Positions 1 through 17,207 of a stretch of DNA of 64,000 bases are shown in pieces. The stretch covers positions 408,206 through 472,205 of the forward strand of contig JBBDRZ010000007.1 in assembly GCA_040905185.1 (NCBI GenBank), given 5' to 3'. This DNA comes from Chloroflexota bacterium. Its GTDB lineage: Bacteria > Chloroflexota > Limnocylindria > QHBO01. The notes under the pieces were generated by a model. The model saw only the letters and a list, made by a program, of their open reading frames with translations. It was not told where the DNA came from and did no database searches. A program made the translations under genes and the position numbers. Each line of letters opens with the position of its first letter. Position 1 is the first letter of the stretch.

Positions 1-347
1 TCCTCGCCTTCGGCATCAAGTCGCACATCTACGAGAATCGAATGCGCGGCAAGCTGACGAAGATCCTGCCCGACGGTAAGGGCGGCATGCGGGAGTACCC
101 CGTCAAGCAGATGCACACGTTGCGCGTAACGCGTGAGTCGCGACTCCGCTTCGAAAAGGAGATCGGGTTCGCTCCCGAAAGCCCAAAGGCCGAGAAGCTC
201 CGCCAGGTGAATTCATCGGTCGGGACATACAGCGATGAACTGATCGACGAGTTCCGCTCGATCACGCCGCTGGGCCGCGAACCGGTCTTCGATCTGACCG
301 AGCGAGCGACCCAGCACTTCGTTGCAAACGGGTTTGTAATCCATAAT
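1..347 (+). mobile_element. C-terminal portion of an intein inside nrdJ, with a homing-endonuclease-like tail
   Basis: PVFDLTERATQHFVANGFVIHN ends in His-Asn (codons 342-347) and is followed by +1 Cys (348-350), the canonical C-terminal splice junction. Upstream, LRVTRESRLRFEKEIGF..SPKAEKL resembles the end of a LAGLIDADG endonuclease insert. The N-terminal junction is outside the window. Confidence 0.8.
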
Positions 348-2234
348 TGCAGCGAATTTATGTACATGGACGACACGTCCTGCAACCTCGCCAGTTTGAA
401 TCTCATGAAGTTCGTGGACGAGCGAGGTGAGTTCGCCATCGAGGACTTCCGGCACGCCGTCCGGGTCGTGTTCACCGCGCAGGAGATCATCGTCGACAAC
501 GCCTCGTACCCCACCGAGAAGATCACGGCCAACTCGCGAGCGTACCGACCCATCGGGATTGGTTTCGCCAACCTCGGCGCGGTGCTGATGAACCGTGGCC
601 TTGCCTATGACAGCGACGAAGGTCGGGCGTACGCAGCGGTCATCGCCGCCCTCGAGCAGGCGGAGTCGGGATTGCAGAGCGCGCGCATGGCGCGCGACCA
701 GGGCGGACCGTTCGCCGGGTACGGGATCAACCGAGAGCCGTACCTGAAGGTCATGGGCATGCACCGCGACGCAGCCTACCGGCTCGACCGACAGGTCATC
801 CCCACCGATCTTCTGGACGCGACTCTCACTGCATGGGACGACGTCCTTGCATTGGGCGAGGAACACGGCTTCCGCAACGGGCAGTTCTCAGTCACTGCCC
901 CCACGGGGACCATATCGTTCCTGCTCGACTGTGACACCACGGGAATTGAGCCGGACATCGCGCTCATCAAGTACAAGCGCCTGGTGGGTGGCGGCTACCT
1001 GAAGATCGTCAACAACACGGTGCCTCACGCCCTGAAGCGGCTGGGCTACAGCGCCGCGCAGGCAGAGGAGATCGTCGCCTACATCGACGAGCAGGAGACC
1101 ATCGAGGGCGCGCCGCACCTCCTCGACGAGCACCTGGCGGTGTTCGACTGCGCCTTCAAGCCCGCCAACGGGCATCGGTCCATTCACTACAACGGCCATC
1201 TCAAGATGATGGCCGCGGTCCAGCCGTTCATCAGCGGGGCCATCTCCAAGACGGTGAACATGCCGGAGGCCAGCACCCCGGAGGAGATCGCCCAGGTCTA
1301 CATCGATGGCTGGAAGCTGGGCCTGAAGGCCATCGCCATTTACCGCGACAACTCGAAGCGTTCGCAGCCGCTGAACGTGAAGAAAGAAGGCTCCCAGGGA
1401 GCGGCGGGCACCACGGCCGTTGCGGGCACAACGGTCGCCGCCGCTCCCCCCCAACCCTACCGACGCCGCCTGCCGGATGAGCGGGCCTCCATCACCCACA
1501 AGTTCAACGTGGCGGGGCACGAGGGGTACCTGACCGTCGGCCTGTACGAGGACGGGCAGCCGGGCGAGATCTTCCTGCGCATGGCCAAGGAGGGGTCGAC
1601 CATCAGCGGGCTCATGGACGCGTTCGCCACCGCGGTCAGCATCGCGCTCCAGTACGGGGTGCCGCTGCCGGACCTCATCAACAAGTTCAGCCACCTGCGC
1701 TTCGAGCCGGCGGGATTCACGACCAACCCGGACGTGCCCATGGCCAAGAGCCTGGTGGACTACATCTTCCGGTACCTGGCGACCAAGTTCCTGAGCAGGG
1801 CGGAGCAGGACCAGGTGGGAGTGGTGAATCGGCAGATGACCCTTGCCGAAGCGGATGCTGTCCGTGGGGAGGCTGCCGATGGGGACGCAGCCTCGGCAAG
1901 CTCGGCAGCGCCGCCCCCGGCAGCCCAGACCTCGGTCGACTCGGCTAAGGCACAGGGCGCTGAGGAGTCCCCGCAGGACAGCGTGTCAGGGACCGATGTT
2001 GACGGGGAGGAGGCAGTACCGGAGCCGTTGCCGGGGTTGATGGATGGGTTGAAGATCGTGGCCCAGCACAACGGCCACGGTTTCACACGGGAAGAGCGCC
2101 TGTCAGCCGGTCAGCCGACCGTGATCTTCGATACGGCCGATTCGCCCGCATGTACCGATTGCGGCTCGATCATGGTCCGCAACGGCAGCTGCTACAAGTG
2201 CCTGAATTGCGGTTCAACTTCAGGTTGTAGTTGA
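1..2234 (+). CDS. nrdJ: Class II (adenosylcobalamin-dependent) ribonucleotide reductase, 5'-truncated by the window edge and interrupted by an intein
   Basis: The frame is open from nt 3, so the start lies left of the window. After the intein the extein resumes CSEFMYMDDTSCNLASLNL. Later motifs are IAIYRDNSKRSQPL and HKFNVAGHEGYLTVGLYEDGQPGEIFL. The C-terminal Cys-rich tail CTDCGS..CYKCLNCG is typical of NrdJ. Confidence 0.9.
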   Translation, partial: LAFGIKSHIYENRMRGKLTKILPDGKGGMREYPVKQMHTLRVTRESRLRFEKEIGFAPESPKAEKLRQVNSSVGTYSDELIDEFRSITPLGREPVFDLTERATQHFVANGFVIHNCSEFMYMDDTSCNLASLNLMKFVDERGEFAIEDFRHAVRVVFTAQEIIVDNASYPTEKITANSRAYRPIGIGFANLGAVLMNRGLAYDSDEGRAYAAVIAALEQAESGLQSARMARDQGGPFAGYGINREPYLKVMGMHRDAAYRLDRQVIPTDLLDATLTAWDDVLALGEEHGFRNGQFSVTAPTGTISFLLDCDTTGIEPDIALIKYKRLVGGGYLKIVNNTVPHALKRLGYSAAQAEEIVAYIDEQETIEGAPHLLDEHLAVFDCAFKPANGHRSIHYNGHLKMMAAVQPFISGAISKTVNMPEASTPEEIAQVYIDGWKLGLKAIAIYRDNSKRSQPLNVKKEGSQGAAGTTAVAGTTVAAAPPQPYRRRLPDERASITHKFNVAGHEGYLTVGLYEDGQPGEIFLRMAKEGSTISGLMDAFATAVSIALQYGVPLPDLINKFSHLRFEPAGFTTNPDVPMAKSLVDYIFRYLATKFLSRAEQDQVGVVNRQMTLAEADAVRGEAADGDAASASSAAPPPAAQTSVDSAKAQGAEESPQDSVSGTDVDGEEAVPEPLPGLMDGLKIVAQHNGHGFTREERLSAGQPTVIFDTADSPACTDCGSIMVRNGSCYKCLNCGSTSGCS

Positions 2235-2267: not shown

Positions 2268-2942
2268 ATGGCACGCAGAACGCTAAGAGTCACAACTCGA
2301 GTCAACCTTCGCTACAGAGTTGAGGTACGACGGCGGCTCACATATCGACTCGAGCCCCAGAGGATCTCAACGGGCTCGGTTCCGGTTAGAGTCCCTCGGT
2401 TAGTGACGACGTCTGTCGCCCCAGTAGCAAGTCATCGGGAGGCGATCTACTCCGCACCTCTCGGCCCGATCCGCCGCGCGGCGGATGAGTACACCGAAGC
2501 TTTGCCGGATCCGCTGTCTCCAGAGGACAAGCCCTTTGATTGCTTCATCTGCTACGCGATCCCAGACGAGGAGGACGTGGTGGCGCCGTTGGTGGAACTG
2601 CTCCGCGATCGGAATCTGACCGTGTGGGCGGGATTGGATCTAACGATCGGCTCGCCCCTCGGACGGAAGATCGATCAGGGGCTGCGTGCCAGCCGGTTCG
2701 GCGTCGTAGTTCTGTCGCCAGCGTTCTTTGATGGCGGTGGGTGGCGGAAGCTCGAACTGGACGCTCTCATGGGTATTGAGGCTCGCGGTTCTGACCCGGT
2801 CATCCTGCCTATCTGGCACAACGTCACCGCAGCGGAGGTAGCCGCGCATAGCCCAATCCTCGCTGGAAAGCTCGGACGCAGCACTGCTACCCAAACGCTG
2901 GAACAGATCTCAGAGGAGATTGCCGAGGTCGCTCGAATTTAG
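2268..2942 (+). CDS. TIR-domain protein (standalone)
   Basis: 224-aa ORF. Residues ~95-220 read KPFDCFICYAIPDEEDVVAPLVELLRDRNLTVWAGLDLTIGSPL..SRFGVVVLSPAFFDGGGWRKLELDAL..PVILPIWH, the bacterial TIR pattern including W...EL. The first ~90 aa are Arg-rich with no recognisable domain, so the true start is uncertain. Confidence 0.8.
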   Translation: MARRTLRVTTRVNLRYRVEVRRRLTYRLEPQRISTGSVPVRVPRLVTTSVAPVASHREAIYSAPLGPIRRAADEYTEALPDPLSPEDKPFDCFICYAIPDEEDVVAPLVELLRDRNLTVWAGLDLTIGSPLGRKIDQGLRASRFGVVVLSPAFFDGGGWRKLELDALMGIEARGSDPVILPIWHNVTAAEVAAHSPILAGKLGRSTATQTLEQISEEIAEVARI

Positions 2943-3193: not shown

Positions 3194-4141
3194 TCAGTCG
3201 CTAGTGACTGCGTCGCCGCTGGACGGGAGAAGAACGGAACTTTCGGGATACAGCTCGCAGATCCGACCTGACTGCCAATCATGCGCGCGGACGAGACTTA
3301 GGTTCCTTGGCCGCGGACCATCTGGAACACCCCTCTCAAATATCAGATCGAAAATGAGCCCTTCAGACCGATGGATCGTCCCCGAGATTTCCGGTCCACC
3401 TATTGCGATGATGAGGTGGTCATTCTCAGGGATGTCCTTGGTAGCGACTCGCGACAGCAGGTCCGCCCGAAGTTCGGATTCGTAGAGTGTTTCCGAGTAG
3501 AACAGGACCAGATCGAAGCGGCTGCCGGCGTCAGTACGTGGTATCCCCAGCGAGCCTCCCGACGTGTAGAAGGCGAAACCCTTCGGCAAGCGCAAACCTG
3601 GAAGCTCGATCTGGGTAGGCAGTGGGCCATCGGGTAGAGAGAAGACCATCTCCCGGGGATCGCAGGCGGCAAGATAATCGATTAGTTCTCTTTCGGCGAC
3701 GGGGTCCGCCAGCGGCAGTCCTTGCGTTGCCTCGCCGTCATACCGCCACATGAAAACCGTCCACCCGTCGAGATTCCGAAACGGCTGACCAGACTCGACT
3801 ATCCGGCGCAGAAGCCGCATCGTGAGTGCATTTGAAAATCGTCGCGTCCGCGTCATCAGTTGAGTGAGTTCAATCCCCACCGAAGTCCCGTCCACCGACG
3901 TTGCCTCAAGATCTGGCGGATTGCTTCCTTTGGACGCGGGGCCCGTGTATTCGTCACGTCCCAACGTCGCGGCAAGGTCGACTCGGTACTTAGAGAAGTG
4001 CGAAATCTCGAGCTGAGCCTTCGATTCGAACGGCGCCGATGCCTGCAGTGCCTGATCCAGCCCCACGACAATGATCCGTTCCCCGGAGGGCCCTTCAGCG
4101 CTTAGGAACACTGGGGAGACTTCTCGAGCGGCTCCTGACAT
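3194..4141 (-). CDS. Hypothetical protein, last gene of the defence-like operon; possible PD-(D/E)xK-type nuclease
   Basis: 315-aa ORF that overlaps the upstream ORF by 47 nt if ATG 4141 is used. No family recognised. PPDLEATSVDGTSVGIELTQL weakly resembles a restriction-endonuclease-fold core. Confidence 0.55.
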   Translation of the reverse strand: MSGAAREVSPVFLSAEGPSGERIIVVGLDQALQASAPFESKAQLEISHFSKYRVDLAATLGRDEYTGPASKGSNPPDLEATSVDGTSVGIELTQLMTRTRRFSNALTMRLLRRIVESGQPFRNLDGWTVFMWRYDGEATQGLPLADPVAERELIDYLAACDPREMVFSLPDGPLPTQIELPGLRLPKGFAFYTSGGSLGIPRTDAGSRFDLVLFYSETLYESELRADLLSRVATKDIPENDHLIIAIGGPEISGTIHRSEGLIFDLIFERGVPDGPRPRNLSLVRAHDWQSGRICELYPESSVLLPSSGDAVTSD

Positions 4142-5984
4142 GTGCGCTCGTGGTTGGATTCATGAATTGCACATACGCACCTTTCATGCCGCGGGTGAGG
4201 AGGACGCGGTAGGTGCGCTTGACGAGGTCGGTGAACTGGGCGCCGCTGCGCTTGACGATGGAGTCATGAGACTCAGAGGGGTCGCCGATCCAGGATTCTG
4301 AGGCGGGGTCCCAGCGGAGGTCGCGGCCGAAGATCACGCCGACGTAGTCGAACTCGAAGCCCTGGGCGGTGTAAATGCAGCCGACCTGATCGATGCCGCG
4401 GGGATCGGACGCCCAGTAGCGCTCCTGGGGGATGCCATCGGCGAGGCGGCCGGCATCGGACCTGGCGTTCCAGGGCATCTGCCAGGTGCCTACCTTTACA
4501 TCGGGGACGAGGGTGCCGTCATCGAGCGGATCGGACCAGGGCCAGCAGAAGCCGGCGACCAGGCGGGCTGTGGTGTTCGGCTCTGCGGCCTTTGATCGGA
4601 TCAGGGCGTCGAGCTGCTCGACCGAGTCGACGATGCGGAAGTCGAACGCGTCGTCGCCCTCCCAGATCGGGTGGGCCGTCTCGGCCAGGCCAAGGGTGTG
4701 GTCGACCCAGCTGACGAAGGCCTCGGAGCCGGCGCAGCGGAACTGGGTCTCGAGCTCGAACTCCTGGATCTCGGCGCTGGCCCGGGCGGCGGCCTCCTTG
4801 ATCAGGTTGACGCTGCCAACCTCGTTGGGGCGGACGACCTGGAGGTCGTCGATGAAGAACACCGTGGTCTTGGCGGCATTCACGAGCTCGTCGATCTGGG
4901 GCAGATCGGTCTTGGCGGCTTTGGGTGTGAATCGACTGGCGGAGGTCTCGCGGATGCGGTGCGCTTCGTCCAGGATCAGGACGTCGACGTCGTTGGGATC
5001 GGCGGCGCCGAACTGATTGAAGTAGGCGAACTGGGCGCGGGCGCGCCTTCCGACGATGCGGCGGATGTTCTCGGTGAACGCCTTGCTGCCGGTGGCGTGC
5101 TGGGCGTTGTAGCCGTCGCGGGCGAGGCGGCCGACGAGGTGGAGGGCGATGACCGACTTGCCGGTGCCGGGACCGCCCTTGACGAGCATCACGGCCTTCG
5201 TCGTGCGGTGGAAGCCCTCGCGGGCGGCGGCGAGGACGGACTCGAAGACGACGAATTGCTCGTCGAGGAGGATGAACTCCTGCTGGCCGGCAACCATCTC
5301 GGCTGTGTGGTCGAGCAGCTTCTTCGAGGGCTTGTACTTCGAGTCGAGGACCTTGGCCATGACAGGGACACCATCGCCTTCTGAGAGGCGCTCATTCAGG
5401 AACTCGGCAAGCTCGGTTGACTGATCGCCGGTGAAGAGCGGATTGGTCTTCAGGTACTCGGCGTGGCGGTCGGCAAATAGCTCCTCGGTCGGGTCGTACT
5501 GCATGTTGTGGAGCCAGCTCACACCCGCGAGACCGATTCCGTCGTCGTAGAAGGCGGTGTGGTTGTCAAGCAACCATTGCTCGTAGAGGCCGACCTGGAC
5601 CGACGGGTGGGGGACGGGGCGGAGCCGTTGCCCCACGAACGTTTCTACACAGCCCTCCGCGTTTGAGCGTGCCGTCGCGCCCCACTGCTTCAGTTCGACG
5701 ATGACCGCGTTTTCGGAGTCGTTCTGGGCGTGGCCTGTCAGCAGGGCGTCGAGTCGCCGACTGGTGTTGCCCAGCTGGTACTCGAGGATCACGCCGTGGT
5801 CGTCGAGATCGGCCTGGCTGATCAACAAGGCCAGCGACGTCAGGCTGTTCTGCCAGCTCTCGTATTCCGCCGCGCCCGGCCTGTGACCGATCTGCGCGAT
5901 GTACTCCCCGCGCACTTTCTCGGCGATCCGATGCATCCGGGCATCGGTCAGGAACAGATCGGTCGACTCTGCGTAGAGCCTCAT
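4095..5984 (-). CDS. DUF2075-family (Schlafen-helicase-like) ATPase with an N-terminal nuclease-like domain
   Basis: 629 aa. Walker A is VKGGPGTGKSVIAL and Walker B is VLILDEAHRI. The C-terminal CIYTAQGFEFDYVGVIFG and the N-terminal RRLDALL..AVIVELKQW (PD-(D/E)xK-like) fit the family. ATGA overlap with the upstream gene at 5981-5984. Confidence 0.85.
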   Translation of the reverse strand: MRLYAESTDLFLTDARMHRIAEKVRGEYIAQIGHRPGAAEYESWQNSLTSLALLISQADLDDHGVILEYQLGNTSRRLDALLTGHAQNDSENAVIVELKQWGATARSNAEGCVETFVGQRLRPVPHPSVQVGLYEQWLLDNHTAFYDDGIGLAGVSWLHNMQYDPTEELFADRHAEYLKTNPLFTGDQSTELAEFLNERLSEGDGVPVMAKVLDSKYKPSKKLLDHTAEMVAGQQEFILLDEQFVVFESVLAAAREGFHRTTKAVMLVKGGPGTGKSVIALHLVGRLARDGYNAQHATGSKAFTENIRRIVGRRARAQFAYFNQFGAADPNDVDVLILDEAHRIRETSASRFTPKAAKTDLPQIDELVNAAKTTVFFIDDLQVVRPNEVGSVNLIKEAAARASAEIQEFELETQFRCAGSEAFVSWVDHTLGLAETAHPIWEGDDAFDFRIVDSVEQLDALIRSKAAEPNTTARLVAGFCWPWSDPLDDGTLVPDVKVGTWQMPWNARSDAGRLADGIPQERYWASDPRGIDQVGCIYTAQGFEFDYVGVIFGRDLRWDPASESWIGDPSESHDSIVKRSGAQFTDLVKRTYRVLLTRGMKGAYVQFMNPTTSAHVRSRSRSLPSVPKR

Positions 5985-7153
5985 CCGCCGGCTCTCGCAT
6001 ATAGCTGCTTCACGGCATCGTCGAGGTGGGCAGTCAGATAATTTACAAGCGAGTCGAAGTTGCGCCAGCCTAGCCGCCGAAGCACGCCTACCAAGAGCTG
6101 GGTGCCAGTCACCGAAGCGCCGCGCGGGGAGAGGGTGGTTTCTATGCTCGCCGTCGCCTCAACTTCGCTCCGGTCTGGGAGCAACGGGTCCGTGAAGCCT
6201 AGTGCGGACGCCGGCGGACTAACTCGCCACCTCGATCCATATTGCATTTGGAGTTCTACGCGCAGAGGCGGGGCGGCCGCACAGACCCTTTCGAGTGCGA
6301 TCTCGCCAAACACAAGCCTTCGCGAGATCTCCCGAAGCAGCGACTCCGTTGTTTCGACCAGGTCCACCTGGGCTTCCAGCGGCTGAGGGCGTGCGACGTA
6401 TTGATGCCTCACGAAGGCCTCGTCCCCAACCGCTGAGGTAAGCGTGCGATCAGGGCGTTCGGCTTCAAGGACGTACTCGCTTCCTCGTGGCTTGCCCTCC
6501 CACTGATCGTGTTCGAGCGCCGTCGCCGCAATTATGTCGAGAGATCGATCTGTCTCCGGATCGAAGCGGCTTCGCGGGACTGCTGCAATGGGCCACATGT
6601 GAAGGAAGAAGCCCGGTGAGCCGTACATGGTGGCGCTCGTGACACGACGATGCAGCGCGAGCACGCTTGGGTTGCCCATTGCCCGCTCTTTGAACCAAAC
6701 CTCCAGCAGTTCCGGGGGCGCCGGGCGGTTCTGGTCCCCAACTCGGACCAGCACTCCGTGATCGCGATGCCAAATCGGGGGTTGAACGGATGGGCCAATG
6801 GCGACAACAAGCAAGGCTTGCCCGGTCGCGGGGTTGGTGACCTGGGCAATCGACATAGCGAACCCCGGCGTGCAATAGGCCCAAATCGTGCTCTGAGCGG
6901 CCGCACGCGGGTCGCCTGACAGTCCATCCCAAGTGCCAGGGACTGCTGGATTATCGGCCTCGCGGACTCCGAGGACGATGGTGCCACCAAGTCCGTTGGC
7001 CATGGCAGCGGCTGTTGCGGCGAATGTTGGCGAGACCCGGTCCTTGTAGTCGAGCCGTGCGTCCTCTGTGAGGCCGTGCTCAAGGAACGCGAGGAGCCGC
7101 GCCCAGTCGAGTGTTTCTAATGGTTCGAGCGCTGGGTGGAGCCCTGGAGTCAT
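5981..7153 (-). CDS. AlbA_2 (Schlafen-core-like, divergent AAA-4) domain protein
   Basis: The ORF runs 5981-7201. The ATG at 7153 forms an ATGA overlap with the stop of the 7150-7422 ORF, so it is taken as the start. LTEDARLDYKDRVSP..AAAMANGLGGTIVLGVRE..LLVVAIGPS..VLVRVGDQNRPA fits the AlbA_2 pattern E..lEfK..aNt.GG.l.iGV. The C-terminal ~220 aa are unassigned. Confidence 0.75.
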   Translation of the reverse strand: MTPGLHPALEPLETLDWARLLAFLEHGLTEDARLDYKDRVSPTFAATAAAMANGLGGTIVLGVREADNPAVPGTWDGLSGDPRAAAQSTIWAYCTPGFAMSIAQVTNPATGQALLVVAIGPSVQPPIWHRDHGVLVRVGDQNRPAPPELLEVWFKERAMGNPSVLALHRRVTSATMYGSPGFFLHMWPIAAVPRSRFDPETDRSLDIIAATALEHDQWEGKPRGSEYVLEAERPDRTLTSAVGDEAFVRHQYVARPQPLEAQVDLVETTESLLREISRRLVFGEIALERVCAAAPPLRVELQMQYGSRWRVSPPASALGFTDPLLPDRSEVEATASIETTLSPRGASVTGTQLLVGVLRRLGWRNFDSLVNYLTAHLDDAVKQLYARAGG

Positions 7154-7422
7154 CCAGTTAGCCGGCGCAATTCTTCCATCCCAGCCGCAGTGATCCGACA
7201 ATGGCCGTCACTTGCGTGATCTGTCAATGTCTCGGCGAAACCCTCCGCGAAACCTTCGATCAGGAGGTCGATGAGGGAGGCCTTCACCGCCTCGCGGGAA
7301 ACCCCTGCCCGTGCTGCGACATCCGCCATATCGAGGTGGAGGATCTCGGACGTTGTCTCTTGGCGGTGCGCCATTTGCCGGAGAGCCATCAGGATTTCCC
7401 GTCGGATCGTGGTTTCGTCCAC
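7150..7422 (-). CDS. Small helix-turn-helix-like protein, first gene of the operon
   Basis: 90 codons. GTG start with AAGGAGGT 5 nt upstream. LHLDMADVAARAGVSREAVKASLIDLL is HTH-like. Confidence 0.55.
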   Translation of the reverse strand: MDETTIRREILMALRQMAHRQETTSEILHLDMADVAARAGVSREAVKASLIDLLIEGFAEGFAETLTDHASDGHCRITAAGMEELRRLTG

Positions 7423-7424
7423 GC

Positions 7425-7763
7425 TTACCTCCTTGGTTCTTGCTGCTTCTCGCAGGTCCCTGAGCGGAGGGCGGCGATGATGGTGCTGACCGTGTCCGGG
7501 ACGCGGCCCTCGTGGCGGGCGGTGTTGGTCAGGTAGGCGTAGGTCGCCTCAGCCGAGGGGCCCCAGTGCCAGGTGTCCTCGAAGGCCAGCAGCTGGGCAT
7601 CGGAGCGGTTGCCCGACTCGTCGCGGAAGATGACGTTGTAGTCGCGGTTCGAGGTGAACGGCGGGTCGAGGTAGATGAGGTCGACGCTGGCGTCGGGCAG
7701 GTAGCGGCGCAGGATGTCGAGGTTGTCGCCGTAGTAGCGGACGTTGGTGGCGAGCTCGGTCAT
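7425..7763 (-). pseudogene. R1: N-terminal fragment (112 codons) of a beta-class N6/N4 DNA methyltransferase
   Basis: MTELATNVRYYGDNLDILRRYLPDASVDLIYLDPPFTSNRDYNVIFRDESGNRSDAQLLAFEDTWHWGPSAEATYAYL.. carries motif IV (DPPF) but no AdoMet-binding half. The ORF stops at 7425 inside the Shine-Dalgarno region of the next gene. Confidence 0.85.
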
Positions 7764-7825
7764 CGGTCCCCCCGCGTGGGCGCTAGCGGGTATGTGGGAG
7801 AGCCTAGCAGCGGGGGCAAGGGCTC
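7764..7825 (-). promoter_or_regulatory. Leader A: conserved promoter/5'UTR module of the repeat family
   Basis: Minus strand reads CTTGCCCCCGCTGCTAGGCTCTCCCACATACCCGCTAGCGCCCACGCGGGGGGACCGATG. This contains an extended -10-like TGC-TAGGCT (plus coordinates 7801-7806), about 37 nt of UTR, and a G-rich SD before the ATG. Near-identical copies lie at 20140-20200 and 26925-26985. Confidence 0.45.
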
Positions 7826-7859: not shown

Positions 7860-8168
7860 ATGACGATCCGGATCGATCCTAAGGCCATCAGCACGGAGGC
7901 GCTGGCCGACTTCGCCAGCCGGCATGGCGTGCTGCGCGTTGCATTGTTTGGGTCGGCCGCGCGAAATGAGCTGCGACCCGCGAGCGACGTGGACGTGGTT
8001 GTCGACTTCGCTGCTCAATCGACGGCTGGCCTGTTCGAGCAGGTCCGGATGGCGGACGAATTGGAGAACCTATTCGGGCGGCCGGTCGACCTGGTCACCC
8101 GCGACGGCCTGCGTCCGCATGTGAGGGCGACGGTCGAACGCGAGGCGATCGTGTTGTATGAGGCGTGA
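7860..8168 (+). CDS. mntA: Nucleotidyltransferase-domain antitoxin (MNT)
   Basis: LFGSAARNELRPASDVDVVVDF is the GS..(D/E)xD nucleotidyltransferase motif. It overlaps the downstream HepT gene by 11 nt. TAGGCT TAGGCT lies directly upstream (7836-7850). Confidence 0.85.
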   Translation: MTIRIDPKAISTEALADFASRHGVLRVALFGSAARNELRPASDVDVVVDFAAQSTAGLFEQVRMADELENLFGRPVDLVTRDGLRPHVRATVEREAIVLYEA

Positions 8169-8496
8169 CGACGAACGCCTGATTGACATCCGCGATGCGG
8201 CTCGGGCCACGCGCCGCTTCGTCAAAGGCCGGACCGCGGAGGACGTCGCCACCGACGAACTGCTTGCCGCGGCCCTGATGCAGAAGATCATCGTCATCGG
8301 TGAGGCCGCAGGCCGGGTCTCCGAGTCTCGTCAGGCAGAACTGCCACAGCTGCCATGGCGCGAGATGATCGGCATGCGCAACCTGGTCACCCACGACTAC
8401 TGGCGGGTCGATCCAGCCATCCTGTGGCGGACCGTCAAGGGCGATATCCCCAAGCTGCTGAAGCAGTTGGAGCAAATCGGTCTACCTGAGGCTTAG
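8158..8496 (+). CDS. hepT: HepT (DUF86, HEPN) toxin
   Basis: 112 aa with MRNLVTHDYWRVD, the Rx4HxY HEPN motif, paired with MNT. Confidence 0.85.
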   Translation: MRRDDERLIDIRDAARATRRFVKGRTAEDVATDELLAAALMQKIIVIGEAAGRVSESRQAELPQLPWREMIGMRNLVTHDYWRVDPAILWRTVKGDIPKLLKQLEQIGLPEA

Positions 8497-8717
8497 CCCT
8501 TCAAGCGACTCGGTCCCCAGTGCCAGGTGTCCTCGAAGGCCAGCAGCTGGGCATCGGAGCGGTTGCCCGACTCGCCGCGGAAGATGACGTTGTAGTCGCG
8601 GTTCGAGTTGAACGGCGGGTCGAGGTAGATCGGGTCGACGCTGGCGCCGGGCAGGTAGCGGCGCAGGACGTCGAGGTTGTCGCCGCAGTAGAGGACGCTG
8701 GTGGCGAGCTCGGTCAT
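8493..8717 (-). pseudogene. R2: methyltransferase N-terminal fragment (74 codons), with leader B at 8718-8775
   Basis: MTELATSVLYCGDNLDVLRRYLPGASVDPIYLDPPFNSNRDYNVIFRGESGNRSDAQLLAFEDTWHWGPSRLKG*. I count about 11 mismatches to R1 over ~220 nt. The longer ORF-track call (to 9209) is an upstream read-through artefact. Confidence 0.85.
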
Positions 8718-8877
8718 CTGTCCCCCCGCATGGGCCGTGCGGGTACTCCGCGCCGAGCGTAGCGGGCCGAGAGCCGTTTGGGAAGGCTTTCTGGCCGCGT
8801 TGGAGCGGCCTTCTAAGGCGCGGAGATGGTGCAGCGGGCGAGGCGGAGGGCTGGAGGTGCCCAGCGCTGTTCGGAGC

Positions 8878-10752
8878 CTACGCTCGAGCTCGCTGGCGTC
8901 GGAGGGCGAGAGCCAGCAGCGCCGTGAGCGTGGCGATGACGGCGAGAGCGCCTGCGGCCAGGGCCCAGTCCGATGCTCCGCCGGACGGCGGCGAAGCCGA
9001 CGGCGCCGCTGACGGTGGAGTCGTGGCCAGGGGGCTCGGGGGTGCAGTGACCGTGACCGAGGCACGGTTGCCGGTGGCGCCCTGGCAGTTCGAGGTGACG
9101 AAGACGGGCTCGGCAGCCGCCGTCGTGATGCGGTTGGGGCCGATGCGGACGTCGTCCACGACATTGTCCTGCGCCGTGGGCCACAGGCCGCCGATGACGG
9201 CAATCCCAAGGTGGTCGGTCTCGATCACGTTGCCGTCGATGGCCACGTCGCGGATGAGGTTGCCGCGTCCGGACAGGCCCCCGCCCAGGAGGCCGATCGC
9301 GCTGGCAATCGTCGTCCCGTCGCAGACATCGGCGTCGGGCGAACCGTCGATCGTGAACTCGTTGGATCTGATGACCACGCCGGTGATCTGGTTGTCCTCC
9401 GCGGGTCGATCCAGGTACGAGTAGCTCGAGCCGTTGGAAACATGCACCGCGGACCCAAACGGGGATCGGGACGATCGAACGACGTTCTCCTCGATCACGA
9501 GCCCCTCGATCCGGTTCCGGCTGCCCCCGTTGTGACCGGCCTGGACCTCGATGGCCACCGGCATGTCGCCCTCGATGGTGTTGCCGCGCACGACCACGTC
9601 GCGCACGGTGTTGTCGTCCATGTAGCGCACCGGCGGACCGATCGCGATCTCGGCCGAGTCGCTGCCGGCCTCGACCGTGATTCCCACGCAACAGAACTCG
9701 CCTGCCTGAGGTGCGAGCCGGAGCTGGTTGTCGAGAATGCGGACGTGCCCGAGGAGGCCCTGCTGCGCTCGGTTGCCGCCGGCACCCACCTGGATGCCGC
9801 CGTCGGGGGAGCCCTCGATGACGTTCCCGATGATCAGGAGATCGGAGATCTGGGCACCGGTCGAGTCGCCCGCCGACTCGGCGTTGATTCCGGGACCCAG
9901 GGCCGGCCCGCTGATCCGGATCCGGTTGTCGGCGATGGTTGCTCCCTCGACCCGATCGCCGTCCCCGGCGACGAAGAACATGATGCCGTGTTCCTCGGCC
10001 TCGATGGTGTTGCCGCTGATGGTCGTGTTCAGCCAGAGGTCGTGGCTTGCGCACGGTACGCCGCAGGCCGCCGCGCCGATCGAAATGTCGATGCCATCGA
10101 AGACGTCGCGCATCACCAGCCCGCTGAGGGTGTTGTCGGCGAACGTCTGGCCCGGCACGAGCGGTTCGGGAGGAGGGCCGATGATGGCGCCCTGCTCGAA
10201 CCCCTCGATGGTAAGCCCGACGATGCGGTTGCCGCTCGAAGCGACGTGCAGGCCGGTGCCGATCTCGGTGTCCGGGTGGATGGTGATGTCCGGACTGCCG
10301 TCTCTGTCGATGTCGCCATCGATATCCACGCCGCCACCGACCATCGCGGGCAACTGTCCCGAGAGGCGGATCACGCTCCCGGCGAGCGCTGCAGCGAACC
10401 GAATCGCATAGGTGCCGGGGTCGTTGTTGGTGGCCTCGATCGCCTCGCGCAGCGAGATGCCGTCAGGGCTCGGCCGGGCGCGGAGGCCCTCGACTTGAGC
10501 GACGTCTCCGTTGACCACGTCCGTGCCGTTGGTCACGAGCACCTCGTCCAGCAGGCCTGCCACGGTCGTAGGGACCGACCCGGGTCCAGAGACGAATGTG
10601 AGCGCGGCAGCGGCGAGTATCGCGACCACCGCCCCGAGCCACAGGCGGCGGGCGAGTGGGGTCGCCGCGGTCATCCCGGCTGCGAAGTGTAGGTCGGGGG
10701 AAGTCGATCGGGACCGCGACCGGCGACAAGAGCGGGTGGCGAGCTCGGTCAT
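8878..10752 (-). CDS. Secreted/anchored right-handed parallel beta-helix repeat protein
   Basis: 624 aa with an N-terminal hydrophobic segment (RRLWLGAVVAILAAAALTF). The body has many G-N/D-rich beta-helix-type repeats (NTISGNTIE, IADNRIRI, IIGNVIEG, VRGNTIEG). A Pro/Ala/Ser linker leads to a C-terminal TM plus RRQRARA. The first 6 codons (MTELAT) belong to repeat R3. An alternative start is the ATG at 10674. Confidence 0.7.
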   Translation of the reverse strand: MTELATRSCRRSRSRSTSPDLHFAAGMTAATPLARRLWLGAVVAILAAAALTFVSGPGSVPTTVAGLLDEVLVTNGTDVVNGDVAQVEGLRARPSPDGISLREAIEATNNDPGTYAIRFAAALAGSVIRLSGQLPAMVGGGVDIDGDIDRDGSPDITIHPDTEIGTGLHVASSGNRIVGLTIEGFEQGAIIGPPPEPLVPGQTFADNTLSGLVMRDVFDGIDISIGAAACGVPCASHDLWLNTTISGNTIEAEEHGIMFFVAGDGDRVEGATIADNRIRISGPALGPGINAESAGDSTGAQISDLLIIGNVIEGSPDGGIQVGAGGNRAQQGLLGHVRILDNQLRLAPQAGEFCCVGITVEAGSDSAEIAIGPPVRYMDDNTVRDVVVRGNTIEGDMPVAIEVQAGHNGGSRNRIEGLVIEENVVRSSRSPFGSAVHVSNGSSYSYLDRPAEDNQITGVVIRSNEFTIDGSPDADVCDGTTIASAIGLLGGGLSGRGNLIRDVAIDGNVIETDHLGIAVIGGLWPTAQDNVVDDVRIGPNRITTAAAEPVFVTSNCQGATGNRASVTVTAPPSPLATTPPSAAPSASPPSGGASDWALAAGALAVIATLTALLALALRRQRARA

Positions 10753-10810
10753 CGGTCCCCCCGCGTGGGCTGCGGGTATCGGTTTCGATAGCGTACAGCC
10801 GGGGTACGAG
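10735..10810 (-). repeat. R3: leader C plus the first 6 codons of the methyltransferase module
   Basis: ggtggcgagctcggtcatcggtccccccgcgtgggc.. matches R1, R2 and R9. The distal part diverges and carries TACGCT instead of TAGGCT. Confidence 0.75.
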
Positions 10811-10834: not shown

Positions 10835-11905
10835 TCACGGCTGGTTCAGCACATCCAGGAGCGTGTCCTCGGCGGCGGCCTGGTGAGCCGTGCTGAGGTA
10901 CTCGGCGTTGGGGATCCCCTCCACCGGTCGGGTGAATCCGACCTCCGGTCCCTCCACCTCCTCGACCTCGATCCGCGCCGGGCTGAACTCCCCAAGCGGG
11001 TAGCGGGCGGCCATGGCGGCTGCCAGCGGATCCCAGAGGTAGTAGGTGCCGTCGGTCATGAACGGATGGGTGGCGAACATCTCGGCCAGGATCTGTGCCC
11101 CGGTCGCGGTGGCCTCGTCCCGGACGCGCTGTGCGTAGTCCGCTGTGACCGGCACCTGGTTGGTCCCGTCGAGGCTGACGAAGCGAACCGTCAGGCCGGC
11201 ATCGAGGACCGCCTGGGCGGCCCGCGGATCGACGTAGATGTTCCATTCAGCGACATGGTTGTCGGCCGGCCCCCCGAACGCCACGTTGCCGGGGACGTGC
11301 AGCGCACCGCCCATGACGTACACCGACTCGATCTGCGTGGCCAGCTCCGGATGCGCGTCGAGGGCATCGCCGAGGTTTGTCATCGGGCCCAACGTCAGCA
11401 CCCGCAGCCCGGCCACCTGGGCAGCGGTGTCGGCCATGAGCTCGACCGCTGTGCCGCCCGTGGGCTGGCGCGACGTCGCGGGTAGGGTGAGACCCGACCC
11501 GGCATCCGCGGCGGCCCGCCAATCGTCGGGGAAGGCGTGGTCCCCGGTGAGCGGAGTTTCACGGCCACAGGCGACCGGGATACTCGGCGCCTGGAGTCGC
11601 TCGAGGAGGCGGAGGACGGTGTCAACGCCGCCTTCGCAGTGCGCTTCCCCCGTGCCCGAGACGGTGATTGCCGCGATCTCCACCTGCGGTGACTCGACCA
11701 GGAAGGAGATGGCAACGATGTCATCGGGGGCGACATCGGTGTCGACCAGGAGCGGGATGGCCGCTTGTGGCGAGGTCGATGCGGCCGGGGACCCCGACAT
11801 GGACCCGGAGCACGCTGAGAGACTCGCCACCAGGACGAGCAGCGCGATCTTCCTTCCCACGTCAGGAAGTATGCCGCCGCGCCACCAATCGATGGTGTCC
11901 ACCAT
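10835..11905 (-). CDS. Inosine/uridine-preferring nucleoside hydrolase family lipoprotein
   Basis: LLVDTDVAPDDIVAI is the DxDxxxDD motif, with GPMTNL and AEWNIYVDP also present. Start taken at MVDTIDWW.. followed by the lipobox-like LSAC. The ORF-track extension to 12208 was rejected. Confidence 0.85.
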   Translation of the reverse strand: MVDTIDWWRGGILPDVGRKIALLVLVASLSACSGSMSGSPAASTSPQAAIPLLVDTDVAPDDIVAISFLVESPQVEIAAITVSGTGEAHCEGGVDTVLRLLERLQAPSIPVACGRETPLTGDHAFPDDWRAAADAGSGLTLPATSRQPTGGTAVELMADTAAQVAGLRVLTLGPMTNLGDALDAHPELATQIESVYVMGGALHVPGNVAFGGPADNHVAEWNIYVDPRAAQAVLDAGLTVRFVSLDGTNQVPVTADYAQRVRDEATATGAQILAEMFATHPFMTDGTYYLWDPLAAAMAARYPLGEFSPARIEVEEVEGPEVGFTRPVEGIPNAEYLSTAHQAAAEDTLLDVLNQP

Positions 11906-11996
11906 CCTCTTGGCGCCTGGTGGTCGACTGAGGGCCACACGGGCACGGCCTCTTTCTGCGATCCTACCGGTTGACGCTTTGATTTCCGGAGTGAAT

Positions 11997-12953
11997 ATGA
12001 CCATGCGCGCATTTGCCGTCGATGCGTTCGGAACCCCCGGCTCCGTTCGTGATTTGCCCCTTCCCGAGCCCGAGGAGGGCGAGATCCGGGTTGCGGTCCG
12101 GGCGGCGGGCGTCAATCGGATGGACCCGGTGTACGTCGGTGGGATGGCCAAGGACTGGATGGAGCATCGGTTCCCGTTGGTGCCGGGAATCGACCTCGCC
12201 GGGGTCATCGACGAGGTCGGGGCCGGCGTGAGCGGGCGGTCGGTGGGGGACGAGGTCTATGGCGTTGCGGCCAAGCCGTTCGTCGGTGCCGGCACGTTTG
12301 CCGAGTACGTGGTGGTCGGCAGCGGAAGTGTTGGCCCCAAGCCCCGCGGGCTAAGCTTCGTCGAGGCGGCGGCGGTGCCGCATGCCGCGTTGACCGCGCT
12401 CGGGCTGGTCGAGGCCGTGGATCCTCAGCCGACCCAAACGGTGGTCGTGATCGGAGCCTGCGGCGGCGTGGGTAGTCATGCCACCCAACTCGCGGCGGCC
12501 CGCGGCGCGGTGGTCATTGCGCTGACCGGGCCGGGCGGCACCGACCAGGCGCGCCAACTTGGCGCGTCGGAGGTTCTCGACTACACCAGCGACGACATCG
12601 GTACGGCGCTGTCCGAGCGCCATCCCGATGGCATCGACGCGCTCATTGCGACCCACGCTGACGAGGAGCTGATCGCGGCCATCGCCCGCCGTATGCGAGC
12701 CGGTGGAGCCGTCGCGTCCTCAGCGATGGGCGGCCACGGACTGGCCGGCGCGCTGGCCGACGTGGGCGTCTCGTTTGCCCAGGTGAACCGGCTATCTCCT
12801 GAGCGGCTGGGCGATCTGACAGAGTTATTCGAGAGTGGCCGCCTCAAGCCCGTTCCCATCACCACCTACCCGCTCGAGGAGGCGGGCGACGCGGTTGCCG
12901 CCATCGCCGACGGCCACACCCGCGGGAAGCGCGTGGTCGTCATTTGGGAGTGA
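11997..12953 (+). CDS. Zinc-type alcohol dehydrogenase / NADPH:quinone oxidoreductase family (MDR)
   Basis: MTMRAFAVDAFG..EGEIRVAVRAAGVNRMD..VVVIGACGGVGSHATQLA. The in-frame ATG at 11997 is used. The upstream 250 codons of the ORF-track call are antisense to the hydrolase gene. Confidence 0.85.
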   Translation: MTMRAFAVDAFGTPGSVRDLPLPEPEEGEIRVAVRAAGVNRMDPVYVGGMAKDWMEHRFPLVPGIDLAGVIDEVGAGVSGRSVGDEVYGVAAKPFVGAGTFAEYVVVGSGSVGPKPRGLSFVEAAAVPHAALTALGLVEAVDPQPTQTVVVIGACGGVGSHATQLAAARGAVVIALTGPGGTDQARQLGASEVLDYTSDDIGTALSERHPDGIDALIATHADEELIAAIARRMRAGGAVASSAMGGHGLAGALADVGVSFAQVNRLSPERLGDLTELFESGRLKPVPITTYPLEEAGDAVAAIADGHTRGKRVVVIWE

Positions 12954-13008
12954 CCAGCGAGTCGGGCTGTGGACCTACGAGGAGATGGCGAGCGCCAGGC
13001 CTGACGCA

Positions 13009-13245
13009 TCACGCTTTCTTCGAGGTGAACTCCGTTTGTTTGACCACCTTGCCCGCCCGATCGTAGGTGCGCCAGGTGCCGACCTGCTTGCCACGATCGA
13101 ACGTGCCGCTGCGCATCAGAGAGCCATCGGTCCGATAGAAGGACCAGGCGCCGTGCATCTCGCCGTCCAGGCGGAAGCCCGTGTACCTGGTCTTGCCGTT
13201 GGCGTAGTGATCGGTGTCCTCGACGGGCGTGCCGGCCTTGGCCAT
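13009..13245 (-). CDS. MORN-repeat (YwqK-like) small protein
   Basis: MAKAGTPVEDTDHYANGKTRYTGFRLDGEMHGAWSFYRTDGSLMRSGTFDRGKQVGTWRTYDRAGKVV. It begins 8 nt after the stop of the upstream oxidase gene. Confidence 0.65.
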   Translation of the reverse strand: MAKAGTPVEDTDHYANGKTRYTGFRLDGEMHGAWSFYRTDGSLMRSGTFDRGKQVGTWRTYDRAGKVVKQTEFTSKKA

Positions 13246-13253
13246 TTGGAATC

Positions 13254-14669
13254 TCAGCCGGGGCGGATGTTCTGGTTCAGCCGGAACAGGTTCCTGGGGT
13301 CGTACTTCGTCTTCAGGGCCTTGAGGCGGTCGTACTTGGCCGGGCCGTAGGCCTGGCGGATGCGCTCCTCGCCCTCGTCCATGAGGAAGTTCACGTAGAC
13401 CCCGGTGTGGTACGGCACCAGGGCATCCCACAGGCCGCGTGACCAGGCGCGCTCCTCGTCGAAGCCCTCGGCCGTGGTGGTAGTGGCGTTGATGTTGAAC
13501 GTATGCCCGGCCCGGCGGCCGCTGAACACCGTCTCGTCGTCGTCCACCCGCGCGACCGCGCCGCCGAGCTGGAAGATCGGGAAGGTGTTGATCTTCGACT
13601 TCATGCGCAAGGCATGGTCAGCGGTGATGTCGATGACCTCGTCGCTGAGCTCCGCCACGTCGCAGGAGCGGAAGTAGTACCACCAGCCGGAGGGCAGCGA
13701 GGCGTCGAACAGGGCCTGGAGGTCGACGAACCGGGAGGGGCGGCAGAGGTCGAGCAGCGGTGACCCGAAGGCCCGCATCGGGCTCACGAAGCGCTCGCCG
13801 TCCTCGATGGGTCCGGCGTAGCAGACCGCCACCGAGACGACCGGCCGCCCGTGCAGCTCCGGCGGGATGATCGGGATCGGCGCGGCATACCGATGGACGA
13901 CGATGGTGGTCAGCTCGTCGGGCGCATCGGCGATCCAGTCGCGATAGAAGCGCAGGACCCGCGGCGAGTCCTCCATCGGCCAGAAGATCGGACCCGCCAG
14001 GACCATCGGCCCCACCGGGTTCAGACGGAACTCGAACTCGGTCACGATCCCGAAGTTGCCGCCGCCCCCACGCAGGCCCCAGAACAGGTCCGCGTTCTCG
14101 GTGGCGCTGGCTCGGACGAGGTCACCCGAGGCGGTAACGACATCGGCAGACAGCAGGTTGTCGATGGTGAGGCCGTACTTGCGCATCAGCCAGCCGATCC
14201 CACCGCCCAGGGTCAGCCCTGCCAGGCCGGTGTGGGTCACGATCCCGGCCGGCACCGCCATACCGAACGCCTGGGTTTCGTGGTCCAGCTCGCCAAGGCG
14301 GACGCCCGCCTGAGCGCGAACCGTGCGCCGATCGGGGTCCACGCGGATCCCGTTCATGAGGCCCAGGTCGATGACCAGCCCGTCGTCGCAGACGGACAAG
14401 CCGGGGAAGCTGTGCCCGCCACCCCGCACCGCGACGAGGATCCCGGTGTGGCGTGCGAAGCGGACCGCGGCGATGACATCCGCGACGCCCGTGCAGCGCG
14501 CGATCAGCGCCGGACTGCGGTCAATCGATCCGTTCCAGACCGCCCGGTGCTCGTCATAGGCCCGGTGGTCGGGACCGATCAGCTCGCCGCGAAAGGCGTG
14601 CCGCAGCTCCGCCAAGGCAGTCTCGTCGAGCCGGGCAACCGGGACCTCAGCCTGGGTCGTGACGCTCAC
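13254..14669 (-). CDS. FAD-linked oxidase (FAD_binding_4 / BBE-like)
   Basis: 471 aa with VRGGGHSF, GGIGWLMRKYG and LRGGGGNFGIVTEFEF, and a C-terminal KYDPRNLFRLNQNI typical of the BBE-like end. GTG start. Confidence 0.85.
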   Translation of the reverse strand: MSVTTQAEVPVARLDETALAELRHAFRGELIGPDHRAYDEHRAVWNGSIDRSPALIARCTGVADVIAAVRFARHTGILVAVRGGGHSFPGLSVCDDGLVIDLGLMNGIRVDPDRRTVRAQAGVRLGELDHETQAFGMAVPAGIVTHTGLAGLTLGGGIGWLMRKYGLTIDNLLSADVVTASGDLVRASATENADLFWGLRGGGGNFGIVTEFEFRLNPVGPMVLAGPIFWPMEDSPRVLRFYRDWIADAPDELTTIVVHRYAAPIPIIPPELHGRPVVSVAVCYAGPIEDGERFVSPMRAFGSPLLDLCRPSRFVDLQALFDASLPSGWWYYFRSCDVAELSDEVIDITADHALRMKSKINTFPIFQLGGAVARVDDDETVFSGRRAGHTFNINATTTTAEGFDEERAWSRGLWDALVPYHTGVYVNFLMDEGEERIRQAYGPAKYDRLKALKTKYDPRNLFRLNQNIRPG

Positions 14670-14750
14670 CGCCGGTCCGTGTCATCGCTTATCGGTTCCC
14701 TCGTGGGCGCTGCGAATGTCGGTTTCACGGCAGCCTAGCAGCGAGGCAAT
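14670..14750 (-). promoter_or_regulatory. Leader F: diverged copy of the repeat-family leader, upstream of the FAD-oxidase gene
   Basis: Minus strand reads ..CGCTGCTAGGCTGCCGTGAAACCGACATTCGCAGCGCCCACGAGGGAACCGATAAGCGATG... It has the same CGCTGCTAGGCT and CGCCCACG.GGG.ACCGAT blocks as leader A. Confidence 0.4.
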
Positions 14751-14795
14751 TGGCTGGTAAGGGCCGACGGCCAATCTGGCCTTGTGCCCACCGTC

Positions 14796-14927
14796 ATGCG
14801 AGCCGGTCCGTATCGGTTCGTCATCTGGAGCACTGAACTGCCCGAGCCCGAGCATGTGCACGTGGAGTATCGTCGGCTCGTAGCGGCGCACCGGCCAGAA
14901 CTCAAGGAGCGGTGGCGTGGCGACTAG
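14796..14927 (+). pseudogene. DUF4160-like remnant with an internal deletion
   Basis: MRAGPYRFVIWSTELPEPEHVHVEYRRLVAAHRPELKERWRGD* has the EP.H.HVE core and the ..EL.E.W tail of DUF4160 but only 43 codons. Confidence 0.5.
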
Positions 14928-15143
14928 CCGCGTTCGAGCGACCGACGTCAAGGTCGGGCGCGCGCACCTGGACGTGTCGTTCAGCGATGGGCGTTCGGTT
15001 CGAGTCCCATCTCGTGGTATCCGCGGCTGGCCGCCGGGTCAGCGGAGAAACGTCGGCACTGGCGCCTGATCGGTCGAGGGATCGGGATCCGGTGGGCAGC
15101 GGGGGCAAGCGATGGGCGGGTAATCGAGTCGTACGAGCCTTGA
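14917..15143 (+). pseudogene. DUF2442-like gene with a frameshift near 15008
   Basis: One frame reads ..VKVGRAHLDVSFSDGRSVRVP. The next frame reads SWYPRLAAGSAEKRRHWRLIGRGIGIRWAAG..VIESYEP*. Together they fit the DUF2442 pattern (..f.DGr...vPl.wyPrL..a..e.R..w.liG.G.gI.W). Confidence 0.55.
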
Positions 15144-15158
15144 CCGCACGTTTGGGCG

Positions 15159-15562: not shown

Positions 15563-15592
15563 CCCGTCGCGATCTCGGTCCAGCGAGGAACG

Positions 15593-15750: not shown

Positions 15751-15800
15751 GTTGGAGTCGCGGTTCGAGTTGAATTCGGGGTCGAGCTCGGTCATCGGTC
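15751..15800 (-). repeat. R4: short form of the methyltransferase module
   Basis: gttggagtcgcggttcgagttgaattcggggtcgagctcggtcatcggtc has the NSNRD-coding part joined directly to the MTEL/ATG part. It has the same architecture as R6. Confidence 0.6.
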
Positions 15801-17200: not shown

Positions 17201-17207
17201 TTTGAGC

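Follow-up and report, generated by a model that had tools for sequence, protein, structure and literature searches.

We analysed a 64,000-nucleotide (nt) stretch of the genome of a Chloroflexota bacterium (assembly GCA_040905185.1, contig JBBDRZ010000007.1, positions 408,206 to 472,205), hereafter the window, in which four genes that we call g1 to g4 follow each other on the minus strand between positions 3194 and 7422. We propose, with a probability of roughly 55%, that this locus is a co-transcribed composite of separable anti-phage modules of known types, lodged in a cassette hotspot bordered by nrdJ and by remnants of a methyltransferase gene. The two central proteins are a predicted Schlafen-type nuclease (g2) and a predicted nuclease-helicase (g3), and both halves belong to published defence families, the prokaryotic Schlafens and the Nhi and Nhi-like proteins. 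Their close genetic coupling is new, but it is limited to a few related loci. When the window is compared with other loci it is called L001. The four genes are:

7150-7422, minus strand: g1, 90 amino acids (aa), GTG start
5981-7153, minus strand: g2, 390 aa from ATG; the open reading frame (ORF) also opens at TTG 7201
4095-5984, minus strand: g3, 629 aa
3194-4141, minus strand: g4, 315 aa

A first-pass annotation of this DNA had described four tightly coupled genes, and the ORFs and their overlaps can indeed be read from the sequence. The stop codon of g1 and the start codon of g2 share ATGA at 7153-7150, and those of g2 and g3 share ATGA at 5984-5981. The overlap between g3 and g4 is 47 nt if g4 starts at ATG 4141. 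The public record places this start at GTG 4066, giving 290 aa, but homology to relatives of g4 reaches up to residues 9-25 of the 315-aa protein, and the tblastn alignments start at residues 9-19, before GTG 4066. We retained ATG 4141, and hence the 47-nt overlap, because the homology to relatives reaches upstream of the recorded start. With a methyltransferase fragment that precedes g1, the locus consists of five ORFs arranged head to tail. By sequence criteria g1 to g4 are real genes rather than chance ORFs, since g2 and g3 score above the Pfam gathering thresholds, g1 to g3 have homologues with the same 4-nt overlaps, and g4 has 202 homologues. In the GTDB genome set, the closest relatives of the window genes come from metagenome-assembled genomes (MAGs) of Chloroflexota/Chloroflexia. 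None of the six proteins scanned had a match in PHROGs, and g1, g2 and g4 had none in NCBIfam. A scan for promoters and terminators gave fewer sites than in shuffled controls. The annotation had not recognised the four-gene arrangement as a named system, and no multi-gene system in the PADLOC models matched it.

We first describe the Schlafen-type protein. The AlbA_2 pattern attributed to g2 was confirmed by the Pfam profile SLFN_AlbA_2 (PF04326), which aligned over model positions 1-117 of 118 and scored 41.7 bits (cutoff 25.3; E 1.9e-10). PF04326 is also the precomputed annotation on all the homologues of g2, of which seven were found among 5.8 billion proteins. The motif E30-DARL-D35-Y-K37 (E30-x4-D35-x-K37, encoded at 7043-7066) is invariant in 7/7 aligned homologues, and E65 likewise. 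The Ex4(E/D)xK motif defines the prokaryotic Schlafen (pSlfn) nucleases (PMC13056530), and its counterpart residues in the CRISPR-associated Schlafen CbCash are E17-D22-K24 (PMC13462974). CbCash is also the best match of g2 among PDB sequences, though a weak one. Hence, g2 is predicted to be a prokaryotic Schlafen (AlbA_2) nuclease with an intact catalytic-type motif. The C-terminal domain (about residues 180-390) had no sequence match. An AlphaFold model built on the seven-sequence alignment gave residues 180-390 a predicted local confidence (pLDDT) of about 85-95. The matches that Foldseek retrieved with it, to AdoMetDC, TBP and RnlA, were all weak (E > 1e-3, template-modelling score 0.2-0.3). 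The domain may have a TBP-like fold, which we regard as a lead from modelling and not as a finding; TBP-like domains occur among pSlfn fusion partners (PMC13056530). In metagenomes scanned with the g2 alignment, the AlbA_2 proteins returned were all distant (27-32% identity) and had no g3 in their vicinity, and the scan of viral contigs returned no g2 relatives.

The gene g1 lies directly upstream of g2, with the 4-nt overlap, in all six loci where it was found. It is probably a winged helix-turn-helix (HTH) protein. The small HTH reported by the annotation was recovered as winged-helix matches, all of them sub-threshold: HTH_Crp_2 in 4/6 orthologues (best E 2.3e-4), DprA_WH and Rv2175c_wHTH among the profiles, and Lrp, IclR and GntR-type regulators in the PDB (E 0.17-0.9). 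The six orthologues share 58-67% identity, and the most conserved part of the protein is an acidic, invariant C-terminal segment, EG.AE.FA.T.TD.A.DGHC.IT. We regard g1 as a likely regulator or neutraliser of g2.

The Walker ATPase assigned to g3 is covered by the full DUF2075 model (PF09848, DUF2075/SLFN-g3_helicase; 282.5 bits, E 7e-84, model positions 1-351 of 354). The match occupies residues 263-606 and includes Walker A (GGPGTGKS, 270-277) and Walker B (D339-E340); GGPGTGKS and DEAH are invariant across 82 g3 homologues. In the N-terminal part, E68, D79, E97-x-K99 and Q100 are also invariant across 82 homologues, with a spacing as in PD-(D/E)xK nucleases. The PD-(D/E)xK segment noticed by the annotation therefore stands as a conserved motif, but profile searches with this domain against Pfam and the PDB gave nothing significant. 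Because of this, the nuclease assignment rests on the motif and on known fusions of DUF2075 to PD-(D/E)xK domains (PMC6765204). We describe g3 as a putative nuclease-helicase, with a PD-(D/E)xK-like N-terminus (at the level of the motif) and an SF1-type (superfamily 1) DUF2075 ATPase. Among defence models, PADLOC Nhi (PDLC02372) matched g3 with E 3.8e-11, over model positions 180-329 of 470 only, which is the Walker A-B region; AbiO matched similarly in part, and of PDC-S41 only the last 70 positions aligned. When the ATPase half was searched as a profile, human SLFN11 was reached with E 0.01, in the Walker region only, and the single g3 sequence gave no match to SLFN11. The viral-contig scan found four g3 relatives. 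One is a full-length homologue with 40% identity at 4620-6482 of L109, an IMG/VR contig labelled as the giant-virus MAG GVMAG-S-1041346-124; the three others have 47-51% identity.

A word-indexed search had made g4 appear to be an orphan. An exhaustive HMMER search overturned this and retrieved 202 homologues, 84 of them with E < 1e-10. The family has a conserved pattern, GxDPPDF...VGx(E/D)xTQ...RR, with invariant D211 and W264 (290-aa numbering), and the window protein reads PPD77...E91-x-T93-Q94. This pattern resembles a PD-(D/E)xK core in which Thr replaces Lys, a likeness of motif only. What remains of the suggestion that g4 is nuclease-like is this PPD...(E/D)xTQ motif, and no fold or family match accompanies it: the family profile gave nothing significant against Pfam, PADLOC and the PDB and found no relative in PHROG, and the single-sequence structure model, with a pLDDT of 34.7, provides no fold evidence. 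A phmmer match to a designed Kelch protein was not reproduced with the family profile and is regarded as spurious. Four g4 relatives were examined in context and have unrelated neighbours, with no obvious conserved operon and with some near toxin-antitoxin pairs. Besides the window copy, no g4 relative lies near any g2 or g3 gene. As judged from its homologues, g4 belongs to an uncharacterised family that appears independently mobile and would have joined the transcript in this genome only.

We then asked whether the genes form a unit. Seen from g2, the close homologues (50-62% identity) are all metagenomic. The triad g1-g2-g3 with its 4-nt overlaps occurs in 5/6 informative loci (L001, L002, L003, L097 and L098), while in L008 the pair g1-g2 is followed by an unrelated 347-aa gene and not by g3. 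The coupling has so far been found in six metagenomic loci of one lineage, with g1-g2 in all six and the triad in five. The pairwise identities of g1, g2 and g3 are congruent, grouping L002 with L003 and leaving L001 outside; this common grouping implies that the three genes were inherited together. Among the triad loci g2 diverges much faster, with pairwise identities of 50-56% versus 76-88% for g3. A sister clade of g2 (P0008 and P0160; AlbA_2, 406 aa) has about 29-35% identity and can be aligned over the full length.

The picture is different when seen from g3. More than 560 stretches in species-representative genomes encode full-length g3 relatives (50-89% identity), and these span many bacterial and archaeal phyla. 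At none of the 80 loci retrieved did g1, g2 or g4 lie within 7 kb of the g3 homologue (0/80; tblastn and a hidden Markov model of the g2 family). The closest g3 relatives, in L009 (87.6% identity to the window) and L010 (89.7% to L002 and L003), lack g1-g2. In a neighbour-joining tree these two nest among the triad-associated g3 genes, which implies at least two losses or replacements. The genes downstream of g3 in L002, L003, L009 and L010 are unrelated to g4. Hence, the four genes are not conserved as a unit elsewhere: g4 stands beside g1-g3 only here, and the g3 family occurs overwhelmingly in genomes that have no Schlafen gene beside it (0/80). What the co-occurrence analysis retains is the triad, with the exception of L008.

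The slot directly upstream of g3 is usually occupied by a coupled partner. The commonest one, in 40/84 loci, is a MazG-like gene (about 122 aa, a pyrophosphohydrolase) at a gap of -4 to +30 nt. These loci are L017 (gene at 6605-6997) and 39 others among L009-L088, spread over many phyla of bacteria and archaea. No PADLOC model matched the MazG-like protein, and our literature search found no paper mentioning MazG together with DUF2075; the MazG-like and nuclease-DUF2075 pair may be an undescribed two-gene system. At other loci the slot holds a 452/454-aa protein carrying a D...ExK motif (L009, L031), a tetratricopeptide repeat (TPR) protein (L016, L018, L045) and an ion channel-SHOCT protein (L010). 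Restriction-type genes, namely HNH and PLD-helicase-DUF3427 genes, often adjoin g3 homologues. The 452/454-aa family is a recurrent g3 partner in the Chloroflexota lineage of the window. It carries a PD-(D/E)xK-like motif, LRPDG...ALVECK, and has no Pfam, PADLOC or PHROG match. Its members are found in L003 (3525-4883), L009 (5640-7004), L012, L013 (two copies) and L031; the gene is upstream of g3 in L009, with a 4-nt overlap, and in L031, and downstream in L003 and L012.

The base composition of the genes also differs. The annotation had described an AT-richer patch, and this holds for the neighbouring TIR gene, g4, g1 and g2, which have a G+C content of 59-63% and a G+C content at third codon positions (GC3) of 0.63-0.67, against a window mean G+C of 67%. 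It does not hold for g3, with a G+C content of 65% and a host-like GC3 of 0.87. Across L001, L002, L003, L009 and L010 the GC3 of g3 is 0.82-0.87, and that of nrdJ is similar (0.84). In contrast, the GC3 of g1 and g2 is 0.56-0.73 across all loci examined, and that of g1, g2, g4, TIR and other genes adjoining g3 is 0.56-0.77. These values seem to fit a mosaic of conserved anchors and variable cassettes with different histories. One possible explanation for the high GC3 of the anchors is that GC-biased gene conversion takes place there during recombination.

How does this locus compare with known systems? Prokaryotic Schlafens are a published defence family (pSlfn; Perez Taboada et al. 2026, PMC13056530), and a CRISPR-associated Schlafen, Cash, has been described (PMC13462974). 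Like these proteins, g2 combines an AlbA_2 nuclease domain carrying Ex4(E/D)xK with an extra C-terminal domain that is a possible sensor. It also resembles them in lying in a defence island and in being associated with a DNA methyltransferase, a trait of the published 'cluster 4' Schlafens, whose C-termini are unknown. Each of the published systems consists of one polypeptide, whereas g2 is always preceded by a separate small winged-helix gene and overlaps a DUF2075 nuclease-helicase gene in 5/6 loci. The C-terminal domain of g2, for its part, has no sequence match and only weak TBP-like fold matches. Neither PMC13056530 nor PMC13462974 mentions a DUF2075 or other helicase partner gene, and our literature search found no paper with both 'AlbA_2' and 'DUF2075'. 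The arrangement of g1 recalls type II toxin-antitoxin pairs, as this small, probable winged-HTH gene lies upstream of g2 with a 4-nt overlap in 6/6 loci. It departs from them in that its HTH is sub-threshold and its conserved acidic C-terminal segment has no known counterpart.

We compared g3 with Nhi (Staphylococcus epidermidis SERP2475; Bari et al. 2022), Nhi-like (Millman et al. 2022) and AbiO. Nhi and Nhi-like proteins join a nuclease to DUF2075 and defend as single genes (10.1101/776245, 10.1101/2022.05.11.491447). All combine, as g3 is predicted to, an N-terminal nuclease-type domain and DUF2075 (PF09848) in one protein. The g3 family resembles them further in occurring mostly without Schlafen partners and in its partial PADLOC matches to Nhi and AbiO. 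It differs from Nhi in three respects: g3 lacks a full-length match to PDLC02372, sequence searches relate its nuclease domain to no known family, and the family usually has a translationally coupled upstream partner (such as the MazG-like gene), which is not described for Nhi.

Long Schlafens of eukaryotes are antiviral, and in SLFN11 the binding of single-stranded DNA by the fused helicase domain switches on the tRNase. The eukaryotic group III Schlafens (human SLFN11, SLFN5 and SLFN13) contain PF04326 and PF09848 in the same order as g2 and g3. However, g2 and g3 are separate ORFs with a stop/start overlap and not one polypeptide, g3 has an extra N-terminal nuclease-type domain, and the C-terminal domain of g2 stands in place of the SLFN linker (SWADL), with no match to the linker domain. 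The similarity to SLFN11 is marginal, and none of our results points to a common descent of the arrangement.

In the composite that we favour, g1 and g2 would form one module. By analogy with pSlfn and Cash, g2, when triggered through its C-terminal sensor, would cut tRNA and bring translation to a halt, and g1, the translationally coupled winged-helix protein, would act as its transcriptional regulator or neutraliser. The second module would be g3, which, as an Nhi-like protein, would have phage DNA or replication intermediates as its target. The three genes, which one small clade has inherited as a set and which are probably transcribed together, would provide a layered defence at the DNA and tRNA levels, with each module able to exist and work without the other. 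The fourth gene would be an addition to the transcript in this genome only. The separability of the modules is supported by the g3 relatives without g1-g2, by the presence of g1-g2 without g3 in L008, and by the differing GC3 of g3 and g1/g2. Several observations weigh against this interpretation. The 4-nt g2/g3 overlap is kept in five loci despite the divergence of g2 to 50-62% identity, which is more than adjacency in an island requires and hints at stoichiometric co-expression. The filling of the coupled slot upstream of g3 by other genes suggests that g3 may work with a partner. Genes of the g2 sister clade are followed directly by an operon encoding an SNF2 helicase-NOV_C protein, a DUF1156 methylase and DUF499 (a BREX/DISARM-like restriction-type module at 10001-14216 in L004-L007 and 639-9859 in L110). 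Finally, the AlbA_2 part of the AlphaFold model of g2 has low confidence.

Some of these points would fit better with an obligate split long Schlafen. Phage DNA or replication intermediates would be sensed by g3, which would then activate the g2 RNase in trans within a complex, while g1 tunes expression or holds g2 inactive, mirroring human SLFN11. We consider this possible, if somewhat unlikely. It would account for the g2/g3 overlap kept in 5/6 informative loci, for the congruent phylogenies of g1, g2 and g3, and for the sister pSlfn clade upstream of helicase operons. The PF09848 domain shared with the group III helicase, together with the reach of the ATPase-half profile to SLFN11, points the same way, as does the presence of possible growth-arrest effectors (MazG-like or, here, pSlfn) in the coupled slot of g3. 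Schlafens associated with restriction-modification (RM) have also been speculated to sense DNA cleavage products (PMC13462974). Yet g3 relatives with 87-90% identity lack g1-g2, L008 has g1-g2 without g3, and published studies show that a pSlfn or an Nhi-type gene is sufficient for defence by itself. In addition, g2 carries its own candidate sensor domain, codon usage suggests different histories for g3 and g1/g2, and the SLFN11 match is marginal (E 0.01) and confined to the Walker region. A broader and more speculative proposal, which we hold with less confidence, is that the nuclease-DUF2075 family is a hub sensor with a swappable coupled effector slot, filled by a MazG-like nucleoside triphosphate pyrophosphatase in about half of the genomes and by a Schlafen tRNase in the clade of the window. 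Here the helicase would control the AlbA_2 RNase in trans, by the same logic as the fused SLFN11-type proteins of animals, for which such pairs were possibly the evolutionary raw material.

It is very unlikely that the locus is a genuine four-gene system with g4 as an integral nuclease-like effector or accessory subunit. The 47-nt g3/g4 overlap backed by N-terminal homology, the PPD...(E/D)xTQ motif reminiscent of PD-(D/E)xK nucleases and the low GC3 that g4 shares with g1 and g2 speak for such a system. However, g4 homologues are absent from all other g1-g2-g3 loci and from the other g3 loci, the genes downstream of g3 in L002, L003, L009 and L010 are unrelated, g4-family genes elsewhere show no obvious conserved operon, and no nuclease fold or family was found for g4. 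We give even less credit to a role outside immunity, such as DNA repair or the control of transcription as housekeeping functions. In its favour, annotations commonly label AlbA_2/HTH proteins as regulators and DUF2075 proteins as generic ATPases, no known defence gene is close to about 30% of pSlfn genes (PMC13056530), and the cassette array described below also carries MerB, methyltransferases and a sigma factor. Such a role would sit poorly with the intact, invariant nuclease motifs of g2 and g3, with the adjoining TIR/ThsB-like gene, MNT-HepT pair and methyltransferase remnant, with the patchy distribution across phyla and domains and the variable partners, and with the HNH and PLD-helicase-DUF3427 restriction-type genes that neighbour g3 elsewhere.

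If g2 and g3 do cooperate, the halves of long Schlafens would have been genetically linked in prokaryotes already, and the locus would offer a tractable bacterial model of a Schlafen-type helicase gating a Schlafen RNase, which is an open question for SLFN11. Should the modules be independent after all, the pSlfn family, itself founded recently, still gains a new operonic context (small winged HTH, pSlfn and Nhi-like), the widespread nuclease-DUF2075 family is shown to have usually a coupled upstream partner, and a cassette hotspot punctuated by repeated methyltransferase 5' fragments is revealed.

The flanks described by the annotation (nrdJ, a truncated methyltransferase and a TIR gene) are all in place, and the defence-island context is borne out by the TIR/ThsB-like gene, the MNT-HepT pair and the methyltransferase fragment:

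42-2234, plus strand: nrdJ within the window, border of the variable region
2268-2942, plus strand: TIR gene, ThsB-like and PDC-S66-like, convergent with g4
7425-7763, minus strand: N-terminal fragment of a DNA methyltransferase, 112 codons, beta-class with a DPPF motif; leader to 7800
7860-8496, plus strand: MNT-HepT toxin-antitoxin pair, between two copies of the methyltransferase 5' fragment and on the opposite strand to them

The full nrdJ runs past the start of the window (11833-16002 in the coordinates of L001) and encodes 1389 aa, including an intein with a LAGLIDADG homing endonuclease domain. In L001, L002, L009, L010, L011, L012 and L031 alike, the variable region is bordered by nrdJ. 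The TIR gene is a separate unit outside the operon, given its convergent orientation with g4. Its product is matched by the TIR_2 and ThsB models, and its C-terminal half by PADLOC PDC-S66 (E 4.8e-42). Thoeris was rejected for lack of a ThsA, and no SIR2, Macro or SLOG gene was present among the genes called within 10 kb. A TIR protein with 47% identity adjoins a g3 homologue in an Acidobacteria MAG (L042).

The methyltransferase fragment ends 2 nt before g1, whose GGAGG ribosome-binding site falls within the last codons of the fragment. L002 and L003 also have this fragment immediately upstream of g1. The GC3 of the fragment is high as well (0.94). The 5' end of this methyltransferase gene is repeated at least 10 times in the window, in one orientation and only between 7.4 and 30.6 kb, and it recurs in other loci:

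Copies in the window: 7400-7800, 8512-8745, 10735-10779, 15750-15818, 17162-17201, 19465-19675, 20137-20169, 26817-26958, 29843-30015, 30590-30619
Copies elsewhere: L010 (6), L002 (2), L003, L012, L014, L009

Each copy consists of a leader of 18-70 nt, a start codon and 10-112 codons (MTELATNV.YYGDNLDILRRYLPDASVDL.YLDPPF...). The 5' edge is roughly fixed and the 3' edge is variable, and a 36-nt core is exact at three sites, with none expected by chance. The cassettes between the copies encode MNT-HepT, a beta-helix protein, sigma factor-SnoaL, a PIN-hydrolase with an HTH protein, a SARP regulator, an HD protein, MerB and methyltransferases. A Pfam scan of the 10 large ORFs of the array detected no integrase, and this result, together with the variable 3' edges, does not support an integron-like mechanism. 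The array may have arisen by tandem accretion or by cassette shuffling driven by homologous recombination at the methyltransferase gene.

Traces of the complete methyltransferase gene are found at related loci. In L003 and L002 a remnant of its C-terminal part lies after the g1-g3 cassette; this remnant is missing from the window. In L101, a full-length methyltransferase (553 aa; N6_N4_Mtase with an Mrr-like C-terminus) shares 62% identity with the window fragment in its N-terminus; next to it come a 120-aa gene and then an AlbA_2 gene. Many prokaryotic Schlafens with unknown C-termini adjoin RM-type systems (PMC13462974), and both the layout of L101 and the operon of the g2 sister clade fit this published neighbourhood. 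In L004-L007, the SNF2 helicase gene of that operon is split, and a DDE transposase is inserted.

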